The position numbers and the translations under genes were made by a program. The notes below the pieces were generated by a model. That model saw only the letters and a list, made by a program, of their open reading frames with translations. It made no database searches and was not told where the DNA came from. From a virus, in IMG/VR virus record IMGVR_UViG_3300035703_000049, positions 24,152 to 88,151 of that record: a DNA stretch of 64,000 nt; one strand, written 5' to 3'. Shown piece after piece: positions 1,232-64,000 of the stretch. How positions within the stretch are numbered: position 1 is the first letter of the stretch; the number at the start of each line of letters is the position of its first letter.

Positions 1232-4200
1232 TTAATATAAATTACCCACAACATATCCATTAATTACATAACTTGCCTCAAGATACTTTACGTCAAACAC
1301 TTTACTTATTGGTAACGCAGTATCCTGTAACAAGAATTTAACTTGTTCTGTTGTGCTATATTGTAAACCAAGTCCATTTGTAGCGTCAAACTCGCCTTGA
1401 TCATACCAAACTTTATTATGAGCATTTGGTATTCGCTGTAAGAAGCTCGCATCTTGAACTAATGTATTAAGTGGAATTGCTAATACTGCACCAGTTCCAT
1501 CAATCCCTCTCCTAATTTGTGTTAATTTATTATTTTCTAAATCTACACCATAATACAGAATTCTCTCTCCACCAACCATTATTATTCCTGGGATTGCTAA
1601 TTCTGTGTTTGGTTGAGCCAAGACGCTAGCATCTTTTACAAATATTTCTGTATCAGTAATATTCAAAGTACGTGCTAGTTCTGTAGTAGATCTTGCACCA
1701 ATTCTGTAGTAATTCCAGTTATCATTTAAATCCTTAAACAATCTAAATGCAACAGCGGGTATTTGTTGATTTTCTCCAAATTGCGTAATTACTAACAATG
1801 ATTCATCAAACATAGTAATGTTATTAGATAATTTTATCTTTGTACCATTTTCAATTAATTCATAATCATTATTAGGCAATAGATATCGTCCGCCATCGAT
1901 TGCATCTTGATCTAATGTTACCCAAAGATAATTAATATTATTAACAGGTGTTGGTAAATCATAAATTTTTGTGTTTATTAAATTAGCTTGAACGCTATCA
2001 TAATTTACAGAATCAAAACCAACGTCATCAAACCCAATCAAAGTAAGAACGTTAGATTCTACAGTTCCTTGATAAACACTAGTTTTAATTCCTAGTCTTT
2101 CATCATTAGTAAATGTTGTAACACGAATAACATCATTTGTATCTAAACTTATACTTTGAGAAATTATTATAGTTTTTTCATCAAGTAGTGAATATTCAGC
2201 CTTGTTTGTTAAGCTTATAGTTAGTAAATCTAAATCTGTTGGGACTAGAGAATATAAAATTATTCTAGGTATTGAGCTACCATCAGTTGGTAATAAATCC
2301 CAATCGATTGTTGGTAATAGTTGTTCTCCATTTAAAGCTACTCTAACAGTAGATTCATTAATTGAATTTATATCTATATCTCTTGTATACGGAATATCAA
2401 ATTCAATAGTTGAATTATCACCAATATAATATTTTTGATTTGGTGGTCTTAATCTATTATTGTTTAATTCAACTATTATTTTTTCTGCACTTGGATAACT
2501 ATAACCAATTTCATTAGCTAGTGTAAATGTATAGTTTGTTGGATAAACGTTACCTGTTACATTAAACAATTCCGTGTTTAAATCAACAAATTGCTGTTCA
2601 GTTGATTCAGTATAGAATAAATGAACATGTATAGTATCATTGTCTGTTAAAGTTATTGAATCGTCAATTGTTAAAGTTGTTAACCCTTGACTAAACAAAG
2701 CTAATTCGTAATCTTCAATTTTTTCACCGTTTAGCGTAACTAAAGATTGATAAATTAAATCTAAATCAATTTGAAGTGTGTAGCTGTTTATGTTTTCTTG
2801 GCAAGCAATTTCTTGATCATAAATTAATCCTTCGCCGCCGCCATTGATTGCATAAATGTACAATACATCATTTGTTAACAATGATTTTAACATTGTAATA
2901 GTTTTATTTTTAAAGTTAATTGTGTAATCTATGTTTTGATCTAATCTACCATAATTTTTTGATATAACAATTAAATCGTCACCTTTAGTAATCGTTGTAT
3001 TAAAAGGATAAACATTGTCAGTATTAACATCATATACTGTAGTAGTAATTAATAAACCAAGACCTTTGTCAGCAAAGTCACTTGCTGGTACTGTAAACAC
3101 TCTAATATCTAATGTATCATAAACTCTACCTGGTATTGCTTCTTCTGGTGCATGACTTGAGTAAGTATCAACAAATTTTCCACCATGCGTAATAATATCT
3201 TCAGGTTTAGTACCTAATGTAGTATCCAAGAAGTTGCTATATATTGTTTGATCTAGTACGCTTTCGTCAAGAACACTAACGCCTTCAGGACCAATGATAA
3301 ATTGATCTAGTCCGCTTATATCGTAAGCACCAACATCAAATCCAGGTTCGTCTCTAAAACTTGCTCCCTGAACTTTAACGCCTGGATATTCTACACCAGC
3401 AAACAATTGTCCTAAATCTTTTCCTGGTAGCCCCGCAGCAGGTTGATAATAAGCCCAAGTTCTGTTTAAATGACTTTCAAATTCATCTGCATTTAATTCT
3501 CTAAAATCTGTTATTTCAAAAGTTTCGCCAGTAGTCGTAACTGGAACAGAATCTCTTAAAGTATATGCTTTATTATTGTAAACAATAATATCTCCGCGAT
3601 CATATCGTGTTTCTAATTGCCACTCTAATACTGTTGGAGCATACAGACTCATATTTCCATCAACACTAACAACTGTGCCGCTTATATCTAATTCATCTGC
3701 ACCAACAAAATATCCTAACGATCTTAAGTATGCTTGTAAGAACTCAGCAGTCCAACCCCCAGGTAACTTTTTATATTGTACTTGTATTCTTCCTGAATCA
3801 TCCGGGAAAATTCTATAGTTACTTGCGTTTTCAACTGGCCATCCAATTTGACTTGCTTCTTCTTTAATCCACTCAAATCCGCTGAGTGCGTCTAACAGTT
3901 CATCTAACACGCCTTGTTCACCAAATACTCTAGATTTCTTTTGATCTCTAATATCAACTGGATTTTCAAATTCGTCCAAGAATTGTATTAAGAATCCACC
4001 GTTGTTTGGAACACGGTCAAACTTAATTACATCTTTAATACTACGAACTTTTTTATTACCCATAATTGGTACAAGCACTGCACCTTCGCCGCTTGAATCT
4101 TCAATCTCTATAATTGGAGTAGTAATATAACCTATGCCTGAATTTACGTGAACTTTTGTTATTTCTCCGTTAACAACAGTAGCATCTAATGTTGTACCGC

Positions 4201-7200
4201 TTCCTGTTGTACCAACTAAAGTTAATGTAGGAGGAGCAGTATATCCTTCTCCTGAATTATGAACTAAAATTGATTCTACTTCTAATGTAAAGTTGTTTAA
4301 CCAAGCAGAATACTCAGGACGTTCAAATATTATGTCATCAATTTCATCTAACCCAGTTGGACTACGATACTTACCATTTGTTTCATTGTAGTAAGCAGGT
4401 ATATCAAAATCTGTTACACCTGTATTAGCTGTATCTAAACCTTCATGACTGTTAACAAATTCGCGTATTTTTGTATGATAAGGTTTAATTTCTTCAATAT
4501 ATTTGCGTAAATTATCTTGTCTATCTTTTTGTAAGGTTGGTATTTGACTAATAGCTTGTTGATTACGGTGTTCAACTTTAATAAAACTTGTCTTAAAAAT
4601 ATAATCAACATACTTTTGTTCAGCAAGTAGATGCTGCATCATTAATAAGAACCAACGATTCTTTTCAATTTGTTCAGTTCCTGAGAATATGTCATTATAA
4701 ACTGAGCGAAGTATGTTTTGTATTTCAGCAGTTGGCCAATCATCAAAAATTTGTATATCAAATGTTTCAATATCAAATCCTTGTGCAAATTTTGTTTGAT
4801 CCCATATAGCATCAATTATTTTATAAGTAGCTGATTCTTGCTTGATTATCTCATAGTTATTATTTGTATATTGTAGTATTACGTATCTACCATTGCCAGC
4901 ATCTTTTACTTTTACAGTGTCCCCTTCACTTGGGATAATGCTAATAAGTTGATAACTAAAATCAATAGTATAGTCAGTTACAATTGGATCTATCGCACCT
5001 GGTTTTAACCAATCAGCAGTTGTTATATATCTTCTATTATCAAAACTTTGAACTTTCTCAAGTATCCAATTATTATTAACTTTTTTATAGATAGTCCACT
5101 TATCACTTACTTCTTCATCAACTTGAACTAAAACTCTATAGTTTTCAGGATAAAGTGAAATATTTAAATATCCTAATTCTGTTCTATCGTTCACTACTTC
5201 ATCATAAGCATCTGTATAAACGTTCGGAATTTCTTCAAAAGACAATAAGTTAGTTGTATTTTTATTCTCTCTTGCAGGTATACGACTCAATATTAAATTG
5301 ACATATTCAACAGCAGATTTTAATGCTGATTTTCTATCTCTATATATTGTTTGACGTGGTCGGTAAGCAATTCCATATTTTTCACCTAGTGTTAATTTAG
5401 GATCTGGAACTAAGTTACCTTGTATATCAGAACCTGCTAAACTGTCAATTAATTTTTGAACAACTCTATCATTTGGGATACTTTGTGCATCATTTTCTGA
5501 TATAAGTTGGAATTCAGCATGTATTGAATTTTCATTGAAAACAACATCATACTCAATGCTTAAAACTATATTTTTATCTTGTAGTAAGTTTGAACAATTA
5601 TAAAGAGCTACTGCATTTGATGCTACAAAAGCTATAAACGGTACGCCAGTTGAACGTGGATTAGCAATTAAGTTTTCTAAATCAACTGTACTGTATCTAC
5701 GATTCTTAACGTTTGGTATTGTTCTTTTACCTGCGACCCAATAATAATATCTATTAGTTACTATTCCAGTATTTGGATCAATATCAGATACTAGATTAAA
5801 ATTATTTGATCTTGGGAAAGAAGTTGGATCTTTTTCATCCACAAATTGTGTAGGAGGCAATATACTTTCTGCCCATTCATAACAAATAATAGTTGATCCA
5901 GGAAATGCACTGTTCCAATTTATTCCTCTGTTACTAATGTTCCCTTGTTCGTAATCAATCCATCTAGTTTGACTAATATCCCACCAAACTTGACCTACGT
6001 GTTCTTTACCCCACACTCTTCCAGAAGAATTATTGTTGTAAACTGCTGGATCAAATGATGTTTGATACGTTATTTCTTGAGCTGCTAAACCGCTTATTTT
6101 TCCTTTTACTGGATCAATAAAATCTAAATCAGTAACAATTTGTTGTGTTTCTTTGTTATAAAGGAAAACACGGTTAATAAGGTTAATGTCAACTTTAGGA
6201 CTATTACTTCTAATAGTGTTCCATGGTTTTTTATTTTCATTGTTGTTAAATGAGAATATCAAACCTGTATTGTTTCCAGTTGTATCATCGCCTGGAGCAC
6301 CAATATAAATTGTACTAGCGTTAATTGCTATTGATTTACCGTATTCATCAAAGCTATCAATTAATGGATTGGTTAGTTTTTGTGCTGACACAAATTGTCC
6401 TGGATTTGTAATTGATGAATTTGCTACTGGTATAAATTGATACATCCAAGCAGCACCGCTTTGCTTTTTAATATCATTAAAGCTAGTTGCGCGTGCATCA
6501 AAGTAAGTTGTTTTGTTATCAATAGTTGTTTCTAATCTTGTACTTGCGCGTGCGCTTCCAACTACTAGTATATCTGCTTCTGGACCAATTGCAAGAGATT
6601 TACCAAATTCTACATAATGATCATCTGTTGGGCTGTTAATAGTTTGTTGATGAGGGAATATTTCTAAACCAATATCAACTAATGGTTGACCTAACGCTGA
6701 AGTTATCAATAATCTTTCACCAGTTATCAAACTGTTAGTTTCTAAGTAAAGATATCCGTTATCGTTTATTGCTGTGACACCTGGGATAGCTGTCTCATTT
6801 ATTGCATCAACAATTGCATCTAAATCATACCCGGTTTCAAGGAATACAAAAAAGTCATTTATAACTAAAACACTATCATCCGTTATAATTGGATCTTGTA
6901 CGGTTCCCGTAATTACACCAAAGAAACGACCTTGATTAATAAATCTATAAACTTTTCCTGAATTTATCTTACCACTATCTTTTCTTGGTGCACCGATGTA
7001 TACAGAGCAATTAGTTGGGCATACTTGTATGCTTTCGCCAAATCCAGAATCATCTTCTAAATCATCATTAGCGGATTCTAAAGTTAACTCAGTAGTTTGA
7101 ACTACATTGTTAGTTTCAATTTTTACTAAAGCGCCGGCATCTGGAGGAGTAAACAATGTTATTGTATCAATTGTATAGGTATACTCTTCACCTTCAACTA

Positions 7201-10200
7201 ACTTTTTATTGTCAACGTAAACGTATGGCATACCTAAAATATTAGCGGCAGTGAAAAATTCTACCGTATCACCATCTGCATAGTAAGTTTCTGCAAGTCT
7301 ATCAAACACATAAACTTTGCCTGCGTTTTCTGCTAATATTGTGCTACCATCTTCATCTATTATATTTGTGTTTGGTGCACCAATAATGATTTGTCTTCCG
7401 CCATCGGTTAATTCTAATGATTGTCCAAATCTATCATCAACATTAGCACTATCGCTAGTGAAGGCAGTAACTAATTCAAAGTGTGTTCTTTGCTCAATGT
7501 AAATCTCAACATTAATTGGAGGCACATCATTAAAAGTAACATAATATTGGTTTCCAATTAGGTCTAATGTATAATCTCTAAATGGAACTTGTATTACACC
7601 ATCAACTTCAACAAATAGTGCATATATACTTGTTGGTGTTGCGTTATCACCTGTTAGACCGTAAGACACTGTTGAACCATCACTAATTATTGTTTGTTGT
7701 GGTAACCCTCTCGATACAGTAACAACTATATTACTTCCAAATAAAGGAGCTGCTGATAACACTAAGTTGCTACCAACTAAAGTATAATCAACGCTTGGTA
7801 TTAGTGCAATCCCATCTTGTGTAACTATAACATTAGCTACATCATTTGGATTAGCAACATCTCCAATTAAAGCAAATATAGTTGAACTACCATCACCTGT
7901 AAACGTTACACTCGCTGATGGTAATATAGAAACAAATCTTCTTTGATAAAGATATACATATCCTTCATCTGCACCTGGTTGACCAACTGCTAGCCAATTT
8001 CCGTCATTACTCAGTACAACATTATATCCAAATTCACCATTTAAGTCCAGTGTATCGGAAGCGATAATTTGTTGAGTTCTAAATTCGCCTGTTTCTGCCG
8101 ATGGTGCAAGTATTACAACAAACCCTATATCGTCTGAATTTGGGGCGCCAGCTGCGAAAGTTGCATCATTACTTGCAGAAACAGATTCGCCAACTCCAAT
8201 AACGCCAACACTATCTGTGGTTAAATTAGCTATTTCTTCTAAAGATCCGTTAGTAGTAATACTGTAAATTACAACAGAACCAATACCATTATTTGATCCT
8301 GGCCTACCGGCTATCATATAATAATTTTGATCATCTGTATCAACAGCATATCCTAGATTATCATTTTCATCAGCAAATGTAGCGCGATAGTTTGTTCCAA
8401 CTTCCCAAACTTTTTGATTTTCGTAGATTCTCCAACCATTATTGTTTGCATTGTCAATAAAGAGTTTATCACCTTCTTGCCAACCTTTGAGTGGTTCTTG
8501 TGCTGCAACATCCTGAGATGAGTTAAACTTCATACTCTTTAATTTAAAAACAAATCCGCTGAATGGATTAATTTGTATTGATCCGTAACCAGTACCTACT
8601 ACAAAAGTTCTTGCATCAACAATAGTCGTAACAGTATAAAATCCAAAAACATTTGGATTAGTGTTGTCTGATTTAATAAAAATTAGATCATTTTTTTCTA
8701 AGTTATGATTGTTAACACAACGTATTGTAGCGTTACCATTTGAAATAACATTTAGCGATTCTAAACGTATATCAGTTTCATCAATGCGATAAACATTCCA
8801 TTGATTGTTTCTATCTGCTGCTATCCAAATTAAATCACCTGCACCAACATCACTTCCTGTTACATAAGAATTTAATGCAGCGCGTGTTGGACTAGCGTAG
8901 TCGACATCAGATAATTGAGCATATCCTGCTGTATATAGATCATTAGTATTTTTACTATATTCTCTATTATTAATAAAGTTTTTATCATAAGGAACATGCT
9001 TTATGAATATATCTTTACTCTTTAAACCTTTGTGACCGTTTGGAAATGCATCGTTGTCGCCTAATAACTCAATTACTAGAGGATCTTTAACTGCCCAACT
9101 TTCATCTAGCTCAATTTGTAAGTTGCGTGTGTTATCAGTTGAACCATACGTACCTAAACGTAATGCCCATTCTTCATAAGAGTTAACAATACCACCAAAG
9201 TTATCTACTTTAGCTTTAAGCAGTTTATCTAAGTTTGAGTTAGTTCCTTTTTGACTAAGCATGCCTTGATAGAACTTAAATTGGCTAGTGTCACTGATAC
9301 CTAAGTCTTCCATGTAACTTCTAGATTCAAATCCAATTAAATTCTTAGCTAACTTTTGTGCATCTTGCTCTAAGTTAACTTGATTTGTATCATAGTATTG
9401 CTTAAACAATCCTGCTCTGTTTGCTAAGTTTGGCAACAATCCTTTCTTAATAGTATTGTAATCAATCTTAATCCATTTATCTAATTCAAAATTAATGCTT
9501 GCTGGTATCTTATCGCTAGCAGTGAAGTATTCTTCTTTAAAGAATATGATGTCACCTTTATTGTAGTTTACGCCAGATTTCCATTCTTCAACATTATCTT
9601 CGTTAATAACGAATCCAGCTGCGCTATAAGATCCATCCCAATCATTAGTTTTAAATCCTTGAATTCTTAAACGGTGCTGTCTATCACCAATAATTGGTTC
9701 GTAAATGATATCATTAAATCTTGTTATGTTGTTGAATAATAGTATGTGTTCATATTCAACAACATCCAAATCTATCAAGTAGATGCCATGGGTGTTATCA
9801 ATCTTTGCGTTAAAGTCTCTTCCGTTTCTATATACAGTATACTCGCTCGCACGAACAATTTTAAAATCTTCATCAAGTATGCGTGTGCTAAGTGGGCGAT
9901 TACTTAATCCATCTACAACACCAAATGCGCTGCGATAATTAATTTTACTACCAACTGGGCTCAAACTGATTGCTACATCAACATCCCATCCCTGTTGTAC
10001 ATAGAATAAAAACTCACGCACAGCAAGATCCCAATCTAGATACCAACTTGCGTCTTCATCTAATTTGTCAGTAAATTGAAAACCTTGTCGTGTTAGGTAA
10101 CGACCATAGCTTATTAAGAAATCACCAACTTGATCAATACTAAAGAATTCAGTACCGTAAGGAACCCTATAAAGTTCTCCAGTACCATCGTTGTACTTTA

Positions 10201-13200
10201 TAATTGCTAACTTACCAACTTTAATATAAGTTTTATTTTCGTTTTCTGCACTTGCTTCTATAGTAAAATATGGTTTATTATCATCATACCCAGTTACGCT
10301 ATAACCATCAACTGTTTTAGTTACGATAACACCACTGTATGTTAGATTAAATATTGGTGCACTCTTGTTTAATACAATATCAAAATCATCATCTGGGATA
10401 ATAACACCTGGGTTATTGCTCGCTGGGGTATATTGCTCAGTAATAATCTTTAAGTATTTTTTATCAGTATAACCAGCAACTTTATATCCTAGTTTTGATT
10501 CTAGTTTTCTAATAATTTGACCAATATTTTTAGTAATGTCAAGTCCGCGACACTTACAATAATCGCTTATCCAGTTAATATAACTGTGAACTCGTGCAAC
10601 ATTACCTTCTAGATCAATTTCATTTTGTACAAATTCGTTAGAGAAATCTCTAATTCCCGTCTTGCTAAAAATTCTTTGCTCGTCATCTAAATCAATTATT
10701 TGATTGTTTGTATCTATATTAACACCAAAATATTCTGCTGGTTTCATTAAAGCAATAGCAAGTTGAATTACGAATGGATATTCACTGCTTTGTCTCCATG
10801 CATTTTCAACTGGTCCGATATCACCAAACTTAAAGAATCCACTAACATCAAGCTCGTTTATATCTTTTGTTACACAATCAATTGGACTTAAAAGTTCACC
10901 GCTGCCATCAACAGGAAGTATTTTACTTAAACTAGGTCTTTCGAATCTAGCATCAATTCCTGCTCTTTCTCCAAATAGTATTTTACCAGCTTCAATATCG
11001 TCCCATAAAACAGTGTTGCCACTTGTGTATGGAGCAGGACCATAACTTTCTTCCCACCAATCTGGTTTATCAGCAAATCCTAACATTTCCCAAGGACGAA
11101 GGTGAGGTGCATCTGTATCAAAGTAATATTTGTAAATACCTCTCCAACTTGAAGCAGGCATTAATTCTCCATCAACACGATTTGTAAATCTACCATAGTT
11201 GTAAGTGAAAGGATCGTTTGCTACAAATTGTCTGTAATCGCTTACTGCTATTGCATTTGCACCAGACCATGCGCTAAAGTGACTACTTAAAATACTGTTA
11301 AATTCTGCTGTAGTGTAATCTGTTTGTCTAAATGCACCTGCGATATAATCCCAAATATCAAAACGATTAACATCATATTTTACTTTAATATTATTGTATA
11401 TTCTTGTTTCAAATTCCAATAACACAGCATCTCTAATATCACCAAACAAAGCAGTTAAACTACCGTCATGTCCGCGAATCATTTGACGTGTATTTTCACC
11501 GTAACCGTCATTTACTATCATAGGAATATACAATGGATATAAACCTAACTTAGTCGGAGTAGCAGGAATATAACTACCATCAGTAGTAGTGTATTCTCTA
11601 ATTTCAAGAATATCACCTTCAACAAGTGTTATTGATGTTAAATCTAATTCAATAACAGGACGAGTTGTTGAGAAAATATAATCTCTGTTTATCAATAATT
11701 GAACATTATTTAGATATACTAAAACTGCTTTATTTGATGCAACTGTTGGATCAAATATTTCTGTAAGATCATAGGTATCTAAACGATTATCAACTACTTG
11801 ATAAATTCTTCTTGTATAATCGTTACCATAAGGTATCATATCGCTTGTAAAATAAGGGAAATTCTTATTTTTATTAGCAACAATTTCAGATAATGCCCTA
11901 TCTAAAGTTTGATTTGCAGGTTCACCAACAACATATAGTTCGTTTATTAATTGTAGTAATCTATTTTTGTATCGAGCATATTCTCGTTGAGCATTAATAG
12001 TTGCGTTAACAAAATTTGCTTGCGGAGAATTCAAGAAGAAATTTGCTAAATGTGATGCGCCATCATGCTGTAATATATTACCTCTAAATGTTTTTACATC
12101 CAGTGTATCTCGTAAATTAAATTCTGATAAAGACTCATCACTTAGGTTTGGTATATCTTCTAAACACTTGATAATATGAGTACGCATTTGACCAAGTGTA
12201 AGTTCAGTAATTTCTTTGTTAAAAGGATTATTAGTGTAGTTTAATGGTGGTTCATAAACACTATTTTCATTTGATTCCAAAGACGCAACTTTAATATCAA
12301 TCTTATCACCAACATTTAAATTTCGATCTAATAGTAGGTATGCTATGTTATCTTCAATTTGAAGATCGTAGTGATTTGTATACAACAAATTATTGTTAAC
12401 ATAAACTATAACGTTTGTTAACATCTCTTGATTTGTGCCCATTGGAAATGCATTAAGTCTAAACAAATTTCTTTGATATTCTGTCGCAAAATATGTTTGT
12501 AATTGTAGTTGTCTAGATTTTTGTCTAACTTTTCTCCACTGATTTCTAAAAGTAAAAGTTCTATCTGGGGCATTAACTTTTACTTTTCCTCCAATAGTTG
12601 ATTTTGTAATACTTTGTTGATTTTGACGATATATAAAAGAATCTTTTGTAATAAAATCAGAGAATACAATGTCACCAATATTATTAATATTACGATACTT
12701 TAACTTAAACCCAAGCACAGGATCAACTATGCTAGTACCAGTTTCATAACCAAATAAGTTGTTTCCATTAAACGTACTACTAGTATAAACGTTTACGTCA
12801 CCAAAACTTTTTTTGTTTTGATCATATAAATCAAATTTTGGTGATTGATTAACTTTAGTCTTTTGTTGACTAACAACCCAAACACCATTTACAAAATGAT
12901 AAGTTTTTCCTTGATTGTTTAAACCTTGCTTAATTAAAACAGTGTCGCCTTCAACAACGTCGTCGCCGTCATCTGCTAAAACCAAGTGAATTTGATCTTC
13001 AAATTCAATGCTAACTGATATAATAGATTCGTCAGGTGGTATAGTTGATGAAAATACTAAACTTTGTGTACTTGCTACATATGACCAAAAATAACCTTGT
13101 GCACCTGCGCTAATCCCGTTTACAAAAACCTTTAATCTTGAAGGTTCATCAATATCAAAATTTAAATCATAGCTATTTGTACTTCCGTCAGAAATAAAAG

Positions 13201-15556
13201 ACCAACTTTTATCATTTGTTTCGCTTTGCGGCCTAATCCATTCAACTTTGTAAATTTTGTTTCTTACATCGGGATTAGTATCTGCTGTAAAAATTACTCT
13301 CATGCCTGGATAAAGAGGAATATCATCAACATAAAATCCTCCTAATCCACCTAACTTCATTTGAATAGTTACAACACCGTCAATTGAAGCTGTTTGCTTT
13401 ACAACCGTATAACCTTCACGTTCTTTTTCAATTTTAAATTCTTCAACCGCAGAAACAGATCCAGAAAAATTAATAATATTTTCTTCTCTGATTACTATTG
13501 GTTGTCCTTCAACTGTGCTTAAAGCATCCAGTGTTACGTTATCAATAACATCAACTGCTTTTTTAGCAATTTGTCCAAAGTTGTATAGTTGTAAGTTTGG
13601 ATCAAATTCTAATATTGGTCTTTTAGCTCTAGCACTTGAATCAATCGTTGATAAATAATTATTATATTTTGCAGTGAGGTCTATAACATCTTTATGAAAC
13701 CAACGGTTATGCCTTACCCATGCGCTTTGCTCAATACTGTTTCTTTTAATTACAAAGTAATCTGGAGTTAGTGGAGCGTTAGTTGAGGCAGCAAATTTTT
13801 CTGTATCATAAAAATCAGTATCAAATGATATTTCAACAACATCCATCCATGTTTCATTAGCAATTAAATCATCAATATCAACTAGTGATATAGATTCTCC
13901 TACTCCTTCTACATAATAAGATTTGTTAGCATATTCGCTTTGTATTACATCTTCTAAAAATCTTATTTTTAATCCGTTTGTAAACCTAACACCGTTTGGA
14001 CTTTCATAAGATCTTTTACCTAAGATACTACCTAAAACATCAATCTTTAAATTATTATTTTGATCAACAATTTCAATTACACCGCCAATATTTGGATCAA
14101 GTGAATCAGTATAATAAAGTCGATCTAGAGTAGATGTTATAAGTGGGATAACTGTTAAGTCATCATTGCTATCTCTATAGATTTTTTTGTTACCATAAGC
14201 AATACCTTCCAAAACAGTAACTTTGTTATTTCTTGGAATAACTGTGCTTGGTCTTAAAACTATATAACCTTCAGAGTTAATAGTTACATCAAATAGTCCT
14301 TTTTGTTGTTCAAAAGATACAGTATCTCCTTGATCAAAACCAGTAGCATCAAATGAAAAATCAACAGAGTCAAATGGTTCAGGATTATACCAAGATTGTT
14401 GTAAATCATATAATTCTAATTTATTAGCGTTAAAAACGGTACCAGTGATAAAATCTTCTAATACACGATAAACATTATTTCCATACTGTATTAATTCCCC
14501 TTCAGCATATGCTTTAAATTGCTGCCAAGGTTGAGGATTTTGTCCGCTAGCTGGATCTTTCAAAAATACTAATTTTTTACCATCAAGCATTCTCTGACCA
14601 TCAATGCCGCCAAATAAAGTAATGATGTCATCGTACTTTTTATAATGCACTTCATTATAACGCAATGCTCGATTTCTATTACTCGCATACGCAACTAAGT
14701 TTGTATTTGTAAAATCTGGCATACGCAAGAAGAAATCTTGTGCATCTGCTTCTGGAACTCTAAATGTAATTGTTCCTACATCGTCCCCGTTATTTTCAAC
14801 ACCAAAAACATCTCTAGTGCTTAAGTTATTTTGCCAAGATAGCTGTTCAGTTGTGCCAGGTGCAGTTTGTATAAAGAATCCGTGCCCCGTTTGATTAACT
14901 TGGAATGTATAAGTTCCGCCTCTAGCCAAACGTATAGTTGGATTTAACTTAGTACCAGTAATGTTAAACTTAATTCCATCTTCTCTAACACGTTGAAAAA
15001 CATTTTCGCTAGTGTCAAATCCTTTTAAATCAAAATTTTCTTTTTCGTATTCACCGTTAACAATTTGATACAGTGTTGGAGGTGTAACAGTTATATCTAA
15101 TTCTAATGGTATTTCTGTAGCAAATACTGTAACAGAATCTGGTCCATTTGGTAACCAATAGTAAGAGCTGTAGTTTAAAAATTTATCATAATCAATAAAT
15201 GCGTCGTAGTTATATGTAAAATCATCAAATAATCTAGAATGATTGTTAGTAAATCCACCAAGCACGTCAATGCGTCTTAATAAATCAACATACCCGGATG
15301 TAAATGATACTTTACCATTTTCATCAACATAAGTTGTATGTGGTTCAAGTTGATAGTTTTGTCTTAGATCGCTAAATTCGTTGATAAAAGAATCGTTAGC
15401 ACCAGCAACTGGACTAAATCTACGCCCAACATAACCATCTAATCTTCTTAGTTCTGGTTCACTAATTAATTGATCTACAGTGGCATGTAAAAATTTATCA
15501 TTTACTTCAGTCCTGAAGACGTTTGGTAAAAAGTCTAAAGATCTTCTATATGCCAT
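1232..15556 (-). CDS. Giant (4774 aa) baseplate wedge / fibre-attachment structural protein (gp7-position)
   Basis: Directly follows gp6. Contains FG-GAP-like propeller repeats (FGxSLxL...IIGAP...GKVYVF), 'F/xDGSTxxF/YxL' beta-sandwich repeats, three CBM5/12-like W-x4-Y-x2-G-D/E motifs, and IKPYHTKIREF, a motif recognised in jumbo-phage baseplate proteins. Confidence 0.7.
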   Translation of the reverse strand: MAYRRSLDFLPNVFRTEVNDKFLHATVDQLISEPELRRLDGYVGRRFSPVAGANDSFINEFSDLRQNYQLEPHTTYVDENGKVSFTSGYVDLLRRIDVLGGFTNNHSRLFDDFTYNYDAFIDYDKFLNYSSYYWLPNGPDSVTVFATEIPLELDITVTPPTLYQIVNGEYEKENFDLKGFDTSENVFQRVREDGIKFNITGTKLNPTIRLARGGTYTFQVNQTGHGFFIQTAPGTTEQLSWQNNLSTRDVFGVENNGDDVGTITFRVPEADAQDFFLRMPDFTNTNLVAYASNRNRALRYNEVHYKKYDDIITLFGGIDGQRMLDGKKLVFLKDPASGQNPQPWQQFKAYAEGELIQYGNNVYRVLEDFITGTVFNANKLELYDLQQSWYNPEPFDSVDFSFDATGFDQGDTVSFEQQKGLFDVTINSEGYIVLRPSTVIPRNNKVTVLEGIAYGNKKIYRDSNDDLTVIPLITSTLDRLYYTDSLDPNIGGVIEIVDQNNNLKIDVLGSILGKRSYESPNGVRFTNGLKIRFLEDVIQSEYANKSYYVEGVGESISLVDIDDLIANETWMDVVEISFDTDFYDTEKFAASTNAPLTPDYFVIKRNSIEQSAWVRHNRWFHKDVIDLTAKYNNYLSTIDSSARAKRPILEFDPNLQLYNFGQIAKKAVDVIDNVTLDALSTVEGQPIVIREENIINFSGSVSAVEEFKIEKEREGYTVVKQTASIDGVVTIQMKLGGLGGFYVDDIPLYPGMRVIFTADTNPDVRNKIYKVEWIRPQSETNDKSWSFISDGSTNSYDLNFDIDEPSRLKVFVNGISAGAQGYFWSYVASTQSLVFSSTIPPDESIISVSIEFEDQIHLVLADDGDDVVEGDTVLIKQGLNNQGKTYHFVNGVWVVSQQKTKVNQSPKFDLYDQNKKSFGDVNVYTSSTFNGNNLFGYETGTSIVDPVLGFKLKYRNINNIGDIVFSDFITKDSFIYRQNQQSITKSTIGGKVKVNAPDRTFTFRNQWRKVRQKSRQLQLQTYFATEYQRNLFRLNAFPMGTNQEMLTNVIVYVNNNLLYTNHYDLQIEDNIAYLLLDRNLNVGDKIDIKVASLESNENSVYEPPLNYTNNPFNKEITELTLGQMRTHIIKCLEDIPNLSDESLSEFNLRDTLDVKTFRGNILQHDGASHLANFFLNSPQANFVNATINAQREYARYKNRLLQLINELYVVGEPANQTLDRALSEIVANKNKNFPYFTSDMIPYGNDYTRRIYQVVDNRLDTYDLTEIFDPTVASNKAVLVYLNNVQLLINRDYIFSTTRPVIELDLTSITLVEGDILEIREYTTTDGSYIPATPTKLGLYPLYIPMIVNDGYGENTRQMIRGHDGSLTALFGDIRDAVLLEFETRIYNNIKVKYDVNRFDIWDYIAGAFRQTDYTTAEFNSILSSHFSAWSGANAIAVSDYRQFVANDPFTYNYGRFTNRVDGELMPASSWRGIYKYYFDTDAPHLRPWEMLGFADKPDWWEESYGPAPYTSGNTVLWDDIEAGKILFGERAGIDARFERPSLSKILPVDGSGELLSPIDCVTKDINELDVSGFFKFGDIGPVENAWRQSSEYPFVIQLAIALMKPAEYFGVNIDTNNQIIDLDDEQRIFSKTGIRDFSNEFVQNEIDLEGNVARVHSYINWISDYCKCRGLDITKNIGQIIRKLESKLGYKVAGYTDKKYLKIITEQYTPASNNPGVIIPDDDFDIVLNKSAPIFNLTYSGVIVTKTVDGYSVTGYDDNKPYFTIEASAENENKTYIKVGKLAIIKYNDGTGELYRVPYGTEFFSIDQVGDFLISYGRYLTRQGFQFTDKLDEDASWYLDWDLAVREFLFYVQQGWDVDVAISLSPVGSKINYRSAFGVVDGLSNRPLSTRILDEDFKIVRASEYTVYRNGRDFNAKIDNTHGIYLIDLDVVEYEHILLFNNITRFNDIIYEPIIGDRQHRLRIQGFKTNDWDGSYSAAGFVINEDNVEEWKSGVNYNKGDIIFFKEEYFTASDKIPASINFELDKWIKIDYNTIKKGLLPNLANRAGLFKQYYDTNQVNLEQDAQKLAKNLIGFESRSYMEDLGISDTSQFKFYQGMLSQKGTNSNLDKLLKAKVDNFGGIVNSYEEWALRLGTYGSTDNTRNLQIELDESWAVKDPLVIELLGDNDAFPNGHKGLKSKDIFIKHVPYDKNFINNREYSKNTNDLYTAGYAQLSDVDYASPTRAALNSYVTGSDVGAGDLIWIAADRNNQWNVYRIDETDIRLESLNVISNGNATIRCVNNHNLEKNDLIFIKSDNTNPNVFGFYTVTTIVDARTFVVGTGYGSIQINPFSGFVFKLKSMKFNSSQDVAAQEPLKGWQEGDKLFIDNANNNGWRIYENQKVWEVGTNYRATFADENDNLGYAVDTDDQNYYMIAGRPGSNNGIGSVVIYSITTNGSLEEIANLTTDSVGVIGVGESVSASNDATFAAGAPNSDDIGFVVILAPSAETGEFRTQQIIASDTLDLNGEFGYNVVLSNDGNWLAVGQPGADEGYVYLYQRRFVSILPSASVTFTGDGSSTIFALIGDVANPNDVANVIVTQDGIALIPSVDYTLVGSNLVLSAAPLFGSNIVVTVSRGLPQQTIISDGSTVSYGLTGDNATPTSIYALFVEVDGVIQVPFRDYTLDLIGNQYYVTFNDVPPINVEIYIEQRTHFELVTAFTSDSANVDDRFGQSLELTDGGRQIIIGAPNTNIIDEDGSTILAENAGKVYVFDRLAETYYADGDTVEFFTAANILGMPYVYVDNKKLVEGEEYTYTIDTITLFTPPDAGALVKIETNNVVQTTELTLESANDDLEDDSGFGESIQVCPTNCSVYIGAPRKDSGKINSGKVYRFINQGRFFGVITGTVQDPIITDDSVLVINDFFVFLETGYDLDAIVDAINETAIPGVTAINDNGYLYLETNSLITGERLLITSALGQPLVDIGLEIFPHQQTINSPTDDHYVEFGKSLAIGPEADILVVGSARASTRLETTIDNKTTYFDARATSFNDIKKQSGAAWMYQFIPVANSSITNPGQFVSAQKLTNPLIDSFDEYGKSIAINASTIYIGAPGDDTTGNNTGLIFSFNNNENKKPWNTIRSNSPKVDINLINRVFLYNKETQQIVTDLDFIDPVKGKISGLAAQEITYQTSFDPAVYNNNSSGRVWGKEHVGQVWWDISQTRWIDYEQGNISNRGINWNSAFPGSTIICYEWAESILPPTQFVDEKDPTSFPRSNNFNLVSDIDPNTGIVTNRYYYWVAGKRTIPNVKNRRYSTVDLENLIANPRSTGVPFIAFVASNAVALYNCSNLLQDKNIVLSIEYDVVFNENSIHAEFQLISENDAQSIPNDRVVQKLIDSLAGSDIQGNLVPDPKLTLGEKYGIAYRPRQTIYRDRKSALKSAVEYVNLILSRIPARENKNTTNLLSFEEIPNVYTDAYDEVVNDRTELGYLNISLYPENYRVLVQVDEEVSDKWTIYKKVNNNWILEKVQSFDNRRYITTADWLKPGAIDPIVTDYTIDFSYQLISIIPSEGDTVKVKDAGNGRYVILQYTNNNYEIIKQESATYKIIDAIWDQTKFAQGFDIETFDIQIFDDWPTAEIQNILRSVYNDIFSGTEQIEKNRWFLLMMQHLLAEQKYVDYIFKTSFIKVEHRNQQAISQIPTLQKDRQDNLRKYIEEIKPYHTKIREFVNSHEGLDTANTGVTDFDIPAYYNETNGKYRSPTGLDEIDDIIFERPEYSAWLNNFTLEVESILVHNSGEGYTAPPTLTLVGTTGSGTTLDATVVNGEITKVHVNSGIGYITTPIIEIEDSSGEGAVLVPIMGNKKVRSIKDVIKFDRVPNNGGFLIQFLDEFENPVDIRDQKKSRVFGEQGVLDELLDALSGFEWIKEEASQIGWPVENASNYRIFPDDSGRIQVQYKKLPGGWTAEFLQAYLRSLGYFVGADELDISGTVVSVDGNMSLYAPTVLEWQLETRYDRGDIIVYNNKAYTLRDSVPVTTTGETFEITDFRELNADEFESHLNRTWAYYQPAAGLPGKDLGQLFAGVEYPGVKVQGASFRDEPGFDVGAYDISGLDQFIIGPEGVSVLDESVLDQTIYSNFLDTTLGTKPEDIITHGGKFVDTYSSHAPEEAIPGRVYDTLDIRVFTVPASDFADKGLGLLITTTVYDVNTDNVYPFNTTITKGDDLIVISKNYGRLDQNIDYTINFKNKTITMLKSLLTNDVLYIYAINGGGEGLIYDQEIACQENINSYTLQIDLDLIYQSLVTLNGEKIEDYELALFSQGLTTLTIDDSITLTDNDTIHVHLFYTESTEQQFVDLNTELFNVTGNVYPTNYTFTLANEIGYSYPSAEKIIVELNNNRLRPPNQKYYIGDNSTIEFDIPYTRDIDINSINESTVRVALNGEQLLPTIDWDLLPTDGSSIPRIILYSLVPTDLDLLTISLTNKAEYSLLDEKTIIISQSISLDTNDVIRVTTFTNDERLGIKTSVYQGTVESNVLTLIGFDDVGFDSVNYDSVQANLINTKIYDLPTPVNNINYLWVTLDQDAIDGGRYLLPNNDYELIENGTKIKLSNNITMFDESLLVITQFGENQQIPAVAFRLFKDLNDNWNYYRIGARSTTELARTLNITDTEIFVKDASVLAQPNTELAIPGIIMVGGERILYYGVDLENNKLTQIRRGIDGTGAVLAIPLNTLVQDASFLQRIPNAHNKVWYDQGEFDATNGLGLQYSTTEQVKFLLQDTALPISKVFDVKYLEASYVINGYVVGNLY

Positions 15557-37407: not shown

Positions 37408-37929
37408 TTGCCAAGTAAGGGAAAAGCTAAAGGAAACGGATGGGAAAGGGAAGTCGCAGATTTTCTTTTCGAGTTGTACGGGGAAAGCTTTGTACGTGTA
37501 CCCAACTCAGGTGCATTTATTGGTGGCAAAAACAGTCATCGTAAAGGAAATTTGAGCGAACAACAAATCCGTGGCTTTAAAGGGGATATAATTCCAGGTC
37601 CCAGTTTTCCCCACTTGAACTTGGAAGCAAAGTTCTATAAGGACTTTGCTTTCCATCAAGTGCTTGCAGGAAGTTGCAAGCAACTTGATGATTGGATAAA
37701 TCAAATTTTAACTACTTGTGACGAAACAGACATAAACATATTAGCGATGAAATTTAATCGCAAAGGCTCATTTATTGCATACGAAATAAAGCACATTCCA
37801 ATCTTAAATTTAGGTCCAAACTACATACGATACTATAATCATAAACATACTCATGGCACTTGGATAATTCAAGAATTCAATAATTTTTGGCAGCTTAACG
37901 GCACACAAATCAAAAATCTCTCAGCTTAA
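37408..37929 (+). CDS. Holliday junction resolvase (Hjc-like PD-(D/E)xK nuclease)
   Basis: KAKGNGWEREVA, RVPNSGA, GDI, LEAK motifs. Confidence 0.75.
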   Translation: MPSKGKAKGNGWEREVADFLFELYGESFVRVPNSGAFIGGKNSHRKGNLSEQQIRGFKGDIIPGPSFPHLNLEAKFYKDFAFHQVLAGSCKQLDDWINQILTTCDETDINILAMKFNRKGSFIAYEIKHIPILNLGPNYIRYYNHKHTHGTWIIQEFNNFWQLNGTQIKNLSA

Positions 37930-37939
37930 CAGCACACTC

Positions 37940-38410
37940 ATTTAGGCTAAACATAGGCTATATAGCCCCATATCTACGTTCAACTTTGAAGGTTGGCGAC
38001 ACCCCGATATTGTCGCAATTGGGCACAGTAAGGCTAACTTTAGGCTAAATGATCGCGGCTCTGTGAAAAAGATACAACCGCAACTAATACACACGTTCGC
38101 TGGTTAGGGCGTGGTGAAGTTCCGTCGCAGAAAGCTGGAGTAGGGGGTACCGGGCGACCGCCTCCGCTACATGTAAATGTAAATCTCCTTTAACAATCAC
38201 AACAGTATGATGGAGTACTCAGATGAAGACTTCTATACTTTTCCTGGAAACAGGAAAAGTATGACATCATATCTAGATGAATACTTTAAGTCGCTTAAGC
38301 GGTTTGCTCGTATGCAAGTAAAGTTAACACTGTGTTATTAAATTGAAGAGAAGAAAATGTTCGAGTGTGAACGTAAGTGAACACGAAGAACAGATGTACG
38401 TAGTACATCT
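37940..38410 (+). ncRNA. Candidate large structured non-coding RNA / origin-associated element (family not recognised)
   Basis: Largest ORF-free gap in the window; visibly GC-richer core; about ten stem-loops, including GCGA, GTAA and GAAA GNRA tetraloops and G-U pairs that only work on the + strand. Confidence 0.6.
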
Positions 38411-38458
38411 CAAAAGAATAGATAAGAATCAAAAAGAATATATTAGGATAGTTACGAC

Positions 38459-38653
38459 TTAAAAGAATGGAAGACCTGACTTTTTAGTTGTTTCCATATT
38501 ATCTTTTATAATTTTTCCTATTATCTCTCTTTCTTGATAATCAAGTAAAAATGCATCGTCGTAAGATAATCCTCCCCTCATATACCAACATATCCTCAAT
38601 AACTCTTCTTTGAGTGATAACGATTCTTTATCCAGATTATCGAGATATTTCAC
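38459..38653 (-). CDS. gp51-like baseplate/tail assembly chaperone segment (probably expressed as a -1 frameshift extension of the upstream gene)
   Basis: ICWYMRGGLSYDDAFLLDYQERE motif; weak GTG start; the frame stays open back to the slippery site at 38689-98. Confidence 0.65.
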   Translation of the reverse strand: MKYLDNLDKESLSLKEELLRICWYMRGGLSYDDAFLLDYQEREIIGKIIKDNMETTKKSGLPFF

Positions 38654-38673
38654 TACCCCATCGTTATCTAATG

Positions 38674-39507
38674 TTAATAACCTGGAGCGAAAAAATTTGC
38701 AGGATCAAAATCAATAGAGGTATCATATGTTTTTGAACAACTTTCGCATTGTGCAGTAAGTTTTGGTAACTTATAATTTGATACGTATTCATTTATCATA
38801 TTTTTAACTTTATCAAACATTTCTTTATCTGCTTGCGTGATAAATTCTGTAATTTCAAAATGATCTGTAACTTTTTCGTAATCTGAAGTAATAATTGCTG
38901 CTATACTATGAGCTAACCGATTGTTTACGTTTTTAGCAATTTTCCTCATCGTATTTCCTATTATTTCTGAACGTTGTTCGGTTGTAATATTAGGTTGACC
39001 TAACTGTTGAAGCATTCTGTTTTCTTCATAACTATCAATATTAAAAGAGTTAATTTCTTTAAAGTTAAGTGGTTTTAATTCAAAAGTTAAATCGTTAATA
39101 GTTGACATTTTTTCCCAATTTGGTTGTTGAATATTTTCCATTATCCAACGACAATCAACTTCGTTATCATTAATAGAATTACAGTGAGGGCATTTACTTT
39201 CTAATTTTAAGTTAGGGCCATATGTTGCTATTCGTATTGCTAATAAAATATAATCTAAATCTGGTCTTGGTATATCCCAAGCATTCCTAATGTTTGGACA
39301 ACAACTTTGAATCATATCAACTGTTGCAGATCCATTCATCAATGCATCGGCATTTTTTAAAAGTAAGTCATCTTTCCCAGTCATGCTTAACACTGGCATT
39401 TCTTTATTTTCTGGTAAATTTATCGATCCTGCTGGCCACCATTTACCATTGCTAGGCAATTGAATGAATAATTTTGGTTGTCTAAAGTGCTTTGATAATG
39501 CTGACAT
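38674..39507 (-). CDS. Baseplate hub assembly chaperone, T4 gp26-like
   Basis: FRQPKLFIQLPSNG, MTGKDDLLLKNADALMNG, DLDYILLAIRIATYG, two CxxC pairs, C-terminal FDPANFF. Confidence 0.8.
   Translation of the reverse strand: MSALSKHFRQPKLFIQLPSNGKWWPAGSINLPENKEMPVLSMTGKDDLLLKNADALMNGSATVDMIQSCCPNIRNAWDIPRPDLDYILLAIRIATYGPNLKLESKCPHCNSINDNEVDCRWIMENIQQPNWEKMSTINDLTFELKPLNFKEINSFNIDSYEENRMLQQLGQPNITTEQRSEIIGNTMRKIAKNVNNRLAHSIAAIITSDYEKVTDHFEITEFITQADKEMFDKVKNMINEYVSNYKLPKLTAQCESCSKTYDTSIDFDPANFFAPGY

Positions 39508-62409: not shown

Positions 62410-64000
<1,591 letters not shown>

Follow-up and report, generated by a model that had tools for sequence, protein, structure and literature searches.

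A large structured noncoding RNA with twin identical boxes in T4-like jumbo phages

Few large structured RNAs have a conserved pseudoknotted core, and most of those that are understood act as ribozymes, riboswitches, or ribonucleoprotein scaffolds. GOLLD and ROOL are phage noncoding RNAs (ncRNAs) of several hundred nucleotides (nt) that consist of several domains, contain pseudoknots and GNRA loops, and are not tied to one neighboring gene. Here, we describe an RNA with the same properties in a 64,000-nt stretch of viral DNA (positions 24,152 to 88,151 of IMG/VR record IMGVR_UViG_3300035703_000049), which as a whole is called the window below. Positions ~37935–38412 of its plus strand are the gene for a stand-alone structured ncRNA of a large family. 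This RNA differs from GOLLD and ROOL in that nothing in Rfam 15 matches it by sequence or structure and in that its carriers are T4-like jumbo phages. Moreover, it contains two identical boxes, and we know of no such twin boxes in GOLLD or ROOL. Overall, the best explanation, to which we assign a probability of about 50%, is a stand-alone ncRNA gene whose product would be a trans-acting scaffold that recognizes the same partner with each of its boxes.

The initial annotation, made from the letters of the window, had proposed an undescribed structured RNA of ~350–480 nt on the plus strand and had recognized no tRNA, tmRNA, RNase P, or intron core in it. A scan with Rfam 15, including the models for GOLLD, ROOL, introns, and RNase P, left the locus without a match at E ≤ 10 and the whole window without one at gathering score; on eight other family loci, it gave nothing at E ≤ 1. 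No other catalogued large RNA matched either. The tRNA-like domain and tag frame of a tmRNA were not found (ARAGORN, 0 genes in the window; no Rfam match), nor were CR-I to CR-V and the P4 helix of RNase P detected by the Rfam models at E ≤ 10. No group I or group II intron model matched; the upstream gene is terminated by a stop codon at 37929, and the gene downstream is on the opposite strand. The results support the reading as an undescribed RNA outside these classes. The family, common across a major group of giant phages, is uncatalogued, being absent from Rfam 15 and from the searchable literature.

Polynucleobacter-1 (RF01718), an orphan structured RNA from freshwater metagenomes (PMC2864571; Weinberg et al., 2010), occurs in the same kind of phage genome, namely in a 302-kb record from which family member L024 also comes. 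The match there (35.5 bits; 165725–165864 of the record, or 1501–1640 of the extracted locus L133) lies at 165.7 kb, outside the family locus and without the core motif described below. A second match of 92.4 bits was observed at 1501–1635 of L132, a contig of a Haliscomenobacter metagenome-assembled genome (MAG). RF01718 did not match the window locus or the 88-kb record at E ≤ 10, remaining below the gathering score of 37 bits, nor did it match the eight other family loci at E ≤ 1. Its 141-position consensus is unlike the twin-box RNA. Identity with Polynucleobacter-1 was rejected: RF01718 is distinct from the twin-box RNA, another orphan that giant phages or MAGs of this kind carry, and the two can share a genome.

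The locus had been described as the only long stretch of the window free of open reading frames (ORFs) and as richer in GC than its surroundings. Both statements were confirmed. No ORF of at least 75 residues lies within 37930–38673, and the real ORF-free gap extends from 37930 to 38458, where it is bounded by a conserved 64-residue minus-strand ORF starting at 38653. Two longer apparent gaps proved to be coding: the one at 351–1231 is covered by a 404-residue minus-strand ORF running past the window start, and the one from 62341 contains a collagen-like repeat ORF running off the window end. The GC content is 0.424 for 37930–38415 and 0.497 for the core, compared to 0.343 for the whole window. 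A coding reading of the box region was rejected as well; a 44-residue ORF (38207–38341) runs over both boxes, and stops break its frame in family members L001 and L020.

Relatives of the RNA were found in two ways. With the upstream nuclease protein as the query, nine IMG/VR loci were recovered, three of which carry the same noncoding stretch. Compared to the window RNA, L002 is 86% identical across 536 nt and L001 is 80% identical across 360 nt, while L003 matches in the core. The 23-base motif of the invariant core, GTAGGGGGTACNGGNNNACCGCCTCC (38140–38165), matched at least 119 stretches of IMG/VR viral contigs. In 185,579 species genomes, it matched only twice, on contigs of 148 and 183 kb from one Haliscomenobacter MAG, and both contigs are probably phage DNA binned with the host. 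These two family members, L130 and L131 (NZ_JBBAKG010000003.1 and ...001.1), score 182.8 and 186.4 bits, respectively, and their contigs hint that the main freshwater clade may infect Bacteroidota. After removal of near-duplicates, 79 sequences remained, differing by up to ~50%. Their conservation spans ~37930–38285, lapses, and returns at 38345–38415. The RNA is common to well over a hundred large T4-like phages, with probable copies in cultured Escherichia coli and Klebsiella phages.

The plus strand folds better than its shuffled versions (z = –3.3; 0 of 100 shuffles as good), whereas the folding of the minus strand is unremarkable by the same comparison (z = –1.4). For pair counts, 81 family members were aligned to R1, a covariance model built on the core. 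In this alignment, which is fitted to the model and hence biased towards the structure, standard pairs occupy 92.9% of the cells, as compared to 80.6% after shuffling and 39–53% with the partners slid. Cells changed on both sides numbered 265 versus 67 in the shuffles, and none of 500 shuffles reached the observed values. An independent MAFFT/RNAalifold analysis of 25 diverse members returned the same helices, with compensatory changes in 19 of 34 pairs. The pair counts also contained many U-G pairs, which would be A.C on the opposite strand. Thus, the RNA lies on the plus strand, as the initial annotation had deduced from the GNRA tetraloops and G-U wobbles, and relatives in syntenic and non-syntenic positions keep it with strong covariation. 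The RNA is built from a 5′ domain that a long-range helix closes, a pair of conserved hairpins, a near-invariant junction core with a pseudoknot, the box module, and a 3′ domain. Outside the core and the box module, the features are as follows.

~37935–38412, plus strand: whole structured RNA of about 475 nt, within the length first proposed; the ends are approximate and were placed where family conservation begins and stops in the profile of the 79 non-redundant relatives and in two alignments.
37939–37945 (CAUUUAG) with 38045–38051 (CUAAAUG), plus strand: long-range helix closing the 5′ domain, predicted by the minimum-free-energy fold with modest support.
37981–95 and 37996–38016, plus strand: two hairpins of the 5′ domain, read from the sequence; the second covaries in L001, L002, and L085.
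38055–58/38078–81 and 38062–64/38074–76, plus strand: helix GCGG/CCGC plus UGU/ACA around the conserved loop GAAAAAGAU, from covariation.
38092–98/38107–13, plus strand: hairpin CACGUUC/GGGCGUG, from covariation.
38358–92, plus strand: GUAA-looped hairpin of the 3′ domain containing tandem G.A pairs, in the second conserved block, from the sequence and aligned relatives.
~38393–38409, plus strand: terminal hairpin, which covaries (columns 604–626).

Nearly all of the helices first read from the single sequence recur in the comparison. In the helix at 38055–81, the two segments pair in 100% and 91.7% of the cells, with double changes in five of seven pairs; the hairpin at 38092–113 has double changes in all six pairs and many U-G pairs. 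The hairpin at 37996–38016 covaries within the subfamily (GCGACA/UGUCGC, GGAGACA/UGUCUCC, and GGUGACA/UGUCAC). The one at 37981–95 is present on the plus strand, where the relatives lend it weak support. At the helix closing the 5′ domain, L001 has UUUUAG/CUAAAA, that is, one compensatory change. The 5′ half of the RNA also contains direct repeats: UUUAGGCUAAA is present twice (37941–37951 and 38039–38049) and AGGCUA four times, also at 37955 and 38032. In the main family, L020 offers a comparable case, with two copies of UAAGGCAACAA. The repeats UUUAGGCUAAA and AGGCUA could permit alternative pairings.

The core, with its near-invariant bases, consists of the following elements.

38137–38188, plus strand: three-way junction closed by GGAG/CUCC (38137–40/38185–88), from covariation.
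38143–48/38160–65, plus strand: G-run helix, invariant in the freshwater clade and with compensatory changes in cultured phages.
38168–72/38177–81, plus strand: GUAA-capped hairpin, from covariation.
38124–28 (GUCGC) with 38154–58 (GCGAC), plus strand: pseudoknot helix X, with 13 strand combinations.

The core motif GUAGGGGGUACNGGNNNACCGCCUCC lies within this helix-closed junction, in which the closing helix and the inner hairpin covary. The outer pair of the closing helix is UA in 39, AU in 34, and GC in 5 sequences, in agreement with the GGAG/CUCC pairing of the initial annotation, and its hairpin UACAU-GUAA-AUGUA likewise has comparative support. Its CGG-GCGA-CCG tetraloop hairpin, in contrast, had to be abandoned: positions 38154–58 pair with 38124–28 instead, so that the strand after CCG is joined to the loop of the G-run hairpin. 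Helix X occurs in 13 distinct strand combinations in 121 sequences, among them GUUGA/UCAAC, GUCAG/CUGAC, GUCAU/AUGAC, and GUUGU/ACAAC, and all of them pair except for a recurrent C.A at position 2. Further variants are found in the phages RaK2, Kaldavass, and PBECO4. Helix X crosses two other helices, namely the G-run helix and the closing helix GGAG/CUCC, which makes the core a pseudoknot. In cultured phages, the G-run helix changes to GGGAG/CUUCC, AGGGG/CCUCU, and GAGAG/CUUUC. Mimicry of an anti-Shine-Dalgarno sequence by CCUCC was rejected, as this strand is base-paired and covaries in the cultured phages.

Downstream of the core lies a module with two identical boxes.

38217–28, plus strand: twin box 1 (ACUCAGAUGAAG), in the loop of the stem 38212–16/38229–33.
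38235–46/38251–62, plus strand: perfect 12-bp hairpin with a GAAA loop between the boxes, from the sequence and compensatory changes (columns 446–467).
38271–82, plus strand: twin box 2 (AUCUAGAUGAAU), which matches box 1 at all three variable positions.

The 12-bp stem had been noticed at the outset, and compensatory changes in the relatives substantiate it. The initial annotation had made no mention of the co-varying boxes, which are the most unusual feature of the RNA. The sequence AGAUGAA is present in both boxes (38221–27 and 38275–81), 54 nt apart, with the stable hairpin in between, and each box is part of a repeated module of ~26 nt, GUAUGAY-N5-AYYYAGAUGAA-AC. In the 79 sequences, three box positions vary, and they vary identically in both loops. 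Positions 38221/38275 are A:A in 41 and G:G in 36 sequences (mutual information 1.06 bits), positions 38225/38279 are G:G in 41 and A:A in 36 (1.0 bits), and positions 38227/38281 are U:U in 60 and A:A in 16 (0.75 bits); mismatched rows number 2, 1, and 2, respectively. Ten variants of the 7-mer were found, and the same 7-mer is present in both boxes at 114 of 124 loci. On a tree inferred from the remainder of the RNA, that is, the scaffold (79 rows), the three positions changed at least 16, 17–18, and 9–11 times independently, in both boxes together (about 40 changes in all). The constraint that keeps the boxes identical is real and strong. Two sites that are forced to be identical and yet often change are a signature that we know from no described RNA. 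Readings of the boxes as a T-loop, C/D box, anticodon loop, or kissing palindrome were discarded, none of them suiting all lineages. We attribute to chance a likeness between the box and AGAUGAAUG in E. coli M1 RNA.

The same organization recurs in cultured phages. Neither the window copy nor a typical family member had a blastn match in 50,697 phage records; cultured phages were reached only with the covariance model and then by BLAST with a RaK2 copy. Model R1 matched Klebsiella phage RaK2 at 7236–7299 (18.4 bits) and 279999–280074 (16.7 bits) and Erwinia phage Kaldavass at 354872–355053 (23.3 bits), and it matched neither Atu_ph07 nor Phosso. Despite the low scores, the RaK2 and Kaldavass copies are probable homologues. 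They keep the pseudoknot helix with new compensatory pairs, and they have two identical boxes around a G/C hairpin followed by tandem-G.A hairpins, with the box words UCUUCAAGAAAUAAAA, CUUCAAG, and UCGUCAG. The boxes of RaK2 copy 1 are 16–19 bases long. BLAST with the RaK2 copy found 58 cultured Rak2-like phages, mostly with two places per genome, on Escherichia, Klebsiella, Salmonella, Yersinia, Erwinia, Pectobacterium, Cronobacter, and Xanthomonas. E. coli phage PBECO4 carries the element where the window does, flanked by the genes for endonuclease VII and the baseplate hub. It is also weakly matched by the covariance model, with compensatory changes, and its twin boxes have another sequence. 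The candidate region in PBECO4 is about 304.8–305.4 kb of NC_027364.1 (minus strand; 400–1010 of locus L149), and those in RaK2 are about 6.8–7.6 kb and 279.7–280.3 kb of NC_019526.1. The RaK2 and Kaldavass copies sit in unannotated gaps of 0.5–0.75 kb or beneath a doubtful ORF. In RaK2 (ORF014w; minus strand, 973–1626 of locus L141) and, as small ORFs, in K64-1, Muenster, and Kaldavass, hypothetical proteins have been annotated over the RNA homologues, on one strand or the other; these annotations are probably spurious.

PA5oct, a Rak2-related Pseudomonas jumbo phage, has unannotated intergenic long noncoding RNAs of 236–619 nt whose transcription was shown by RNA sequencing (ncRNA001–004; PMC7318152). 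The covariance model matched none of the four, and thus does not support them as expressed homologues. By eye, the 3′ end of ncRNA004 (990–1140 of locus L148; MK797984.1, ~246.6 kb) contains a hairpin, UUUCCUUCCC-AAAC-GGGGAGGAAA, which is flanked by repeated CAUAAG, and a UGAGG...CCUCA hairpin precedes this G/C hairpin. The arrangement resembles the twin-box module, a likeness that the covariance model does not back.

How the boxes work can be read in different ways. In the explanation that we prefer, the RNA would act in trans as a scaffold. The knotted core would be its constant part, serving as the site for a conserved protein or ligand or as a catalytic center, and the two boxes would be its specificity part. 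Because the boxes are identical to each other and yet free to change, they may read the same short partner twice. Such a partner could be a nucleic-acid sequence that is present twice, either as a repeat or as the strands of a palindrome, or else the two subunits of a dimer. We give this specific mechanism about one chance in three. Several observations weigh against it. A nucleic-acid partner in trans needs at least three coordinated changes per switch, as compared to two for a contact between the boxes or for a dimeric protein, and thus favors the latter readings. The reverse complement of the boxes is not enriched above chance within 2 kb of the RNA at 114 loci; it is at chance level in the 88-kb record too, and so is the complement of the 16-base RaK2 box in the RaK2 genome. 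When columns of eight neighboring protein families were compared with the box variant, only background was obtained, and none tracked it. In thermodynamic folds, the unpairedness of the boxes is 0.48 and 0.51, only slightly above the 0.40 of the rest of the RNA. Finally, none of the listed sequencing runs contains the stretch as RNA, so that the transcript, its ends, and its abundance are unproven. Contigs from four sequencing runs matched the stretch; the one labelled RNA is probably DNA, and the matches have no bearing on transcription.

The leading rival is an internal structural rule, in which the boxes are kept identical by a like-with-like contact through non-Watson-Crick pairs, by a conformational switch in which they pair in turn with one shared segment, or as the two equivalent sites of a homodimeric RNA-binding protein. 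Two coordinated changes per switch would then suffice, which fits the about 40 co-changes with almost no intermediates as well as the lack of a complement in trans or in cis in the regions searched. The ~26-nt modules give the domain a two-fold pseudo-symmetry, and the direct repeat UUUAGGCUAAA at 37941 and 38039 could support alternative pairings. However, complementary covariation with the boxes was seen in no column of the RNA, and no candidate for a dimeric protein was found. Natural RNAs very seldom contain long parallel like-with-like pairing, which would hardly span the 16–19-base boxes of RaK2 copy 1. Overall, we regard an internal rule as somewhat doubtful, although less so than the rivals discussed below. 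Another reading is a new class of phage RNA that would be a bivalent RNA-guided reader, with two rapidly re-programmable identical recognition loops on an invariant knotted scaffold and a repeated or palindromic target in the host or in a rival phage. We consider it unlikely. If it were true, the reader would serve host take-over, the exclusion of related phages, or counter-defense, and a box variant would be a specificity or "immunity" allele.

A third possibility is that the RNA is a precursor processed by itself or by the host, in which the boxes are cleavage sites releasing the hairpin or the core is a self-cleaving or ligating ribozyme. The core is near-invariant and doubly pseudoknotted like the cores of small ribozymes, and direct repeats flank a very stable hairpin. 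In PBECO4 (838–855 of locus L149) and RaK2 copy 1 (1657–1674 of L141), a terminator-like hairpin with a U-run is located between the boxes; short and long isoforms, ending after box 1 or reading through to box 2, are conceivable in these two phages and would be plausible products of such a precursor. Nevertheless, identical cleavage sites are expected to be constant and not to change about 40 times, and no ribozyme family of Rfam matches. Processing is thus a decidedly unlikely function of the boxes or the core.

The genes next to the RNA in the window are the following.

37408–37929, plus strand: upstream gene for a PDDEXK_15/RusA-like resolvase-type nuclease (Pfam PF24608, E = 1.3e-25; phrog_244).
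38459–38653, minus strand: 64-residue ORF ending ...LPFF, a small gene kept beside the RNA in 35 related loci, no Pfam match.
38674–39507, minus strand: T4-type baseplate hub gene (Pfam PF12322), convergent downstream.

The RNA of the window sits between a gp46/47-resolvase block and a convergent baseplate hub gene, and PBECO4 has the same order. In the family, genes for gp46/47-type recombination nucleases lie further upstream, and the convergent hub gene and small conserved genes lie downstream. In RaK2 and Atu_ph07, the homologues of the hub gene bear the annotation gp26 baseplate hub, and by the hub protein the cultured relatives are the Rak2-like jumbo phages and Atu_ph07 (26–30% identity). 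The position is not universal, as the RaK2 and Kaldavass copies sit elsewhere. For 122 loci, the same-strand gene directly upstream encodes a GIY-YIG protein in 94 cases (a protein of 143 residues; PF19835, E = 6e-34) and, in 12 cases, one of which is the window, a PDDEXK_15 protein.

This arrangement is reminiscent of the OMEGA and HEARO RNAs, guide RNAs of IscB/TnpB nucleases, which also are structured RNAs beside a small nuclease gene and combine a conserved scaffold with a short variable part. The RNA could accordingly be a guide or cofactor of the adjacent nuclease in an RNA-guided or RNA-activated system, its boxes guiding the enzyme to a palindromic target. At ~106 of the 122 loci, the gene immediately upstream in the same orientation codes for a small nuclease, and two identical, fast-evolving boxes would suit both strands of a palindromic site. 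Unlike in OMEGA and HEARO systems, however, the nuclease family varies (GIY-YIG, PD-(D/E)XK, and endonuclease VII in PBECO4), and the gene may be distant or divergent. In PBECO4, it points away from the RNA; in RaK2 and Kaldavass, the RNA is unlinked and far from the nuclease; and in L002, 3.4 kb with two paralogous genes for B12-binding radical-SAM proteins (4518–7928; 565 residues each) separate the two. There is no transposon context, and the variable part is duplicated inside the scaffold instead of standing at one end. No nuclease residue tracks the box variant (mutual information ≤0.56 of ~1 bit, no better than for baseplate genes). A guide function for the neighboring enzyme is therefore very improbable.

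In most members, a SegE/GIY-YIG-type gene adjoins the RNA, as SegB-type free-standing homing endonuclease genes of T4 adjoin stable RNA genes, whereas the neighbor is a PDDEXK/RusA-like resolvase in the window and endonuclease VII in the cultured relatives. With such varied nucleases in one slot, the site looks like the resolvase position of the genome and not like a homing insertion. Rak2-like phages and Atu_ph07 share the order gp47-gp46 ... nuclease ... hub, and their nuclease is endonuclease VII. Because this conserved synteny of the phage group is kept with another nuclease, the neighboring gene is read as the resolvase slot of the genome type, filled by non-homologous nucleases, and not as a demonstrated partner of the RNA.

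The same loci speak for a gene of its own. In PBECO4, a TG-extended TATAAT promoter-like site precedes the RNA, and RaK2 copy 1 is preceded by a TTGAAC-18-TATAAT site; both are matches to the consensus and no evidence of function. Neither a sigma-70-type promoter nor an intrinsic terminator was found for the window copy. Here, co-transcription with the upstream operon is possible, as had been suggested at the outset. It is not a family rule, given the promoter-like site and the divergent nuclease gene in PBECO4. These two features, the unlinked copies in RaK2 and Kaldavass, and the radical-SAM interval in L002 are the reasons for regarding the RNA as a stand-alone gene.

They also bear on an element that acts at the DNA level or in cis, such as a replication origin or R-loop primer, a packaging or recombination site, or a 3′ untranslated region or terminator of the convergent operons. 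The locus is located at a convergent strand switch beside recombination genes, and in T4, oriF lies near the baseplate genes. Such an element would not account for the RNA-type covariation, with G-U pairs on one strand, GNRA loops, tandem G.A pairs, and the pseudoknot, nor for the unrelated genome positions behind promoter-like sites in RaK2 and Kaldavass. Moreover, no intrinsic terminator is predicted at the end of the element in the window. We consider a DNA-level or cis function extremely unlikely.

The likely copies in cultured phages of E. coli (PBECO4/121Q group), Klebsiella (RaK2 and K64-1), and Erwinia make the RNA accessible to phage genetics. There, the box signature provides a genetic handle, as one box can be altered, or both, or alleles can be swapped. 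Annotation of the locus in these genomes is absent or consists of doubtful small ORFs.

Two further observations concern the ends of the window. On the minus strand, 1232–15556 is one ORF of 4774 residues, a giant protein gene, which is followed by the 404-residue ORF that runs off the window start. On the plus strand, the ORF at ~62410–64000, which extends past the window end, contains dozens of near-identical collagen-like repeats of nine codons (GGUUAUACAGGUUCUAUUGGAUACACAGGA...) and probably encodes a fiber protein.

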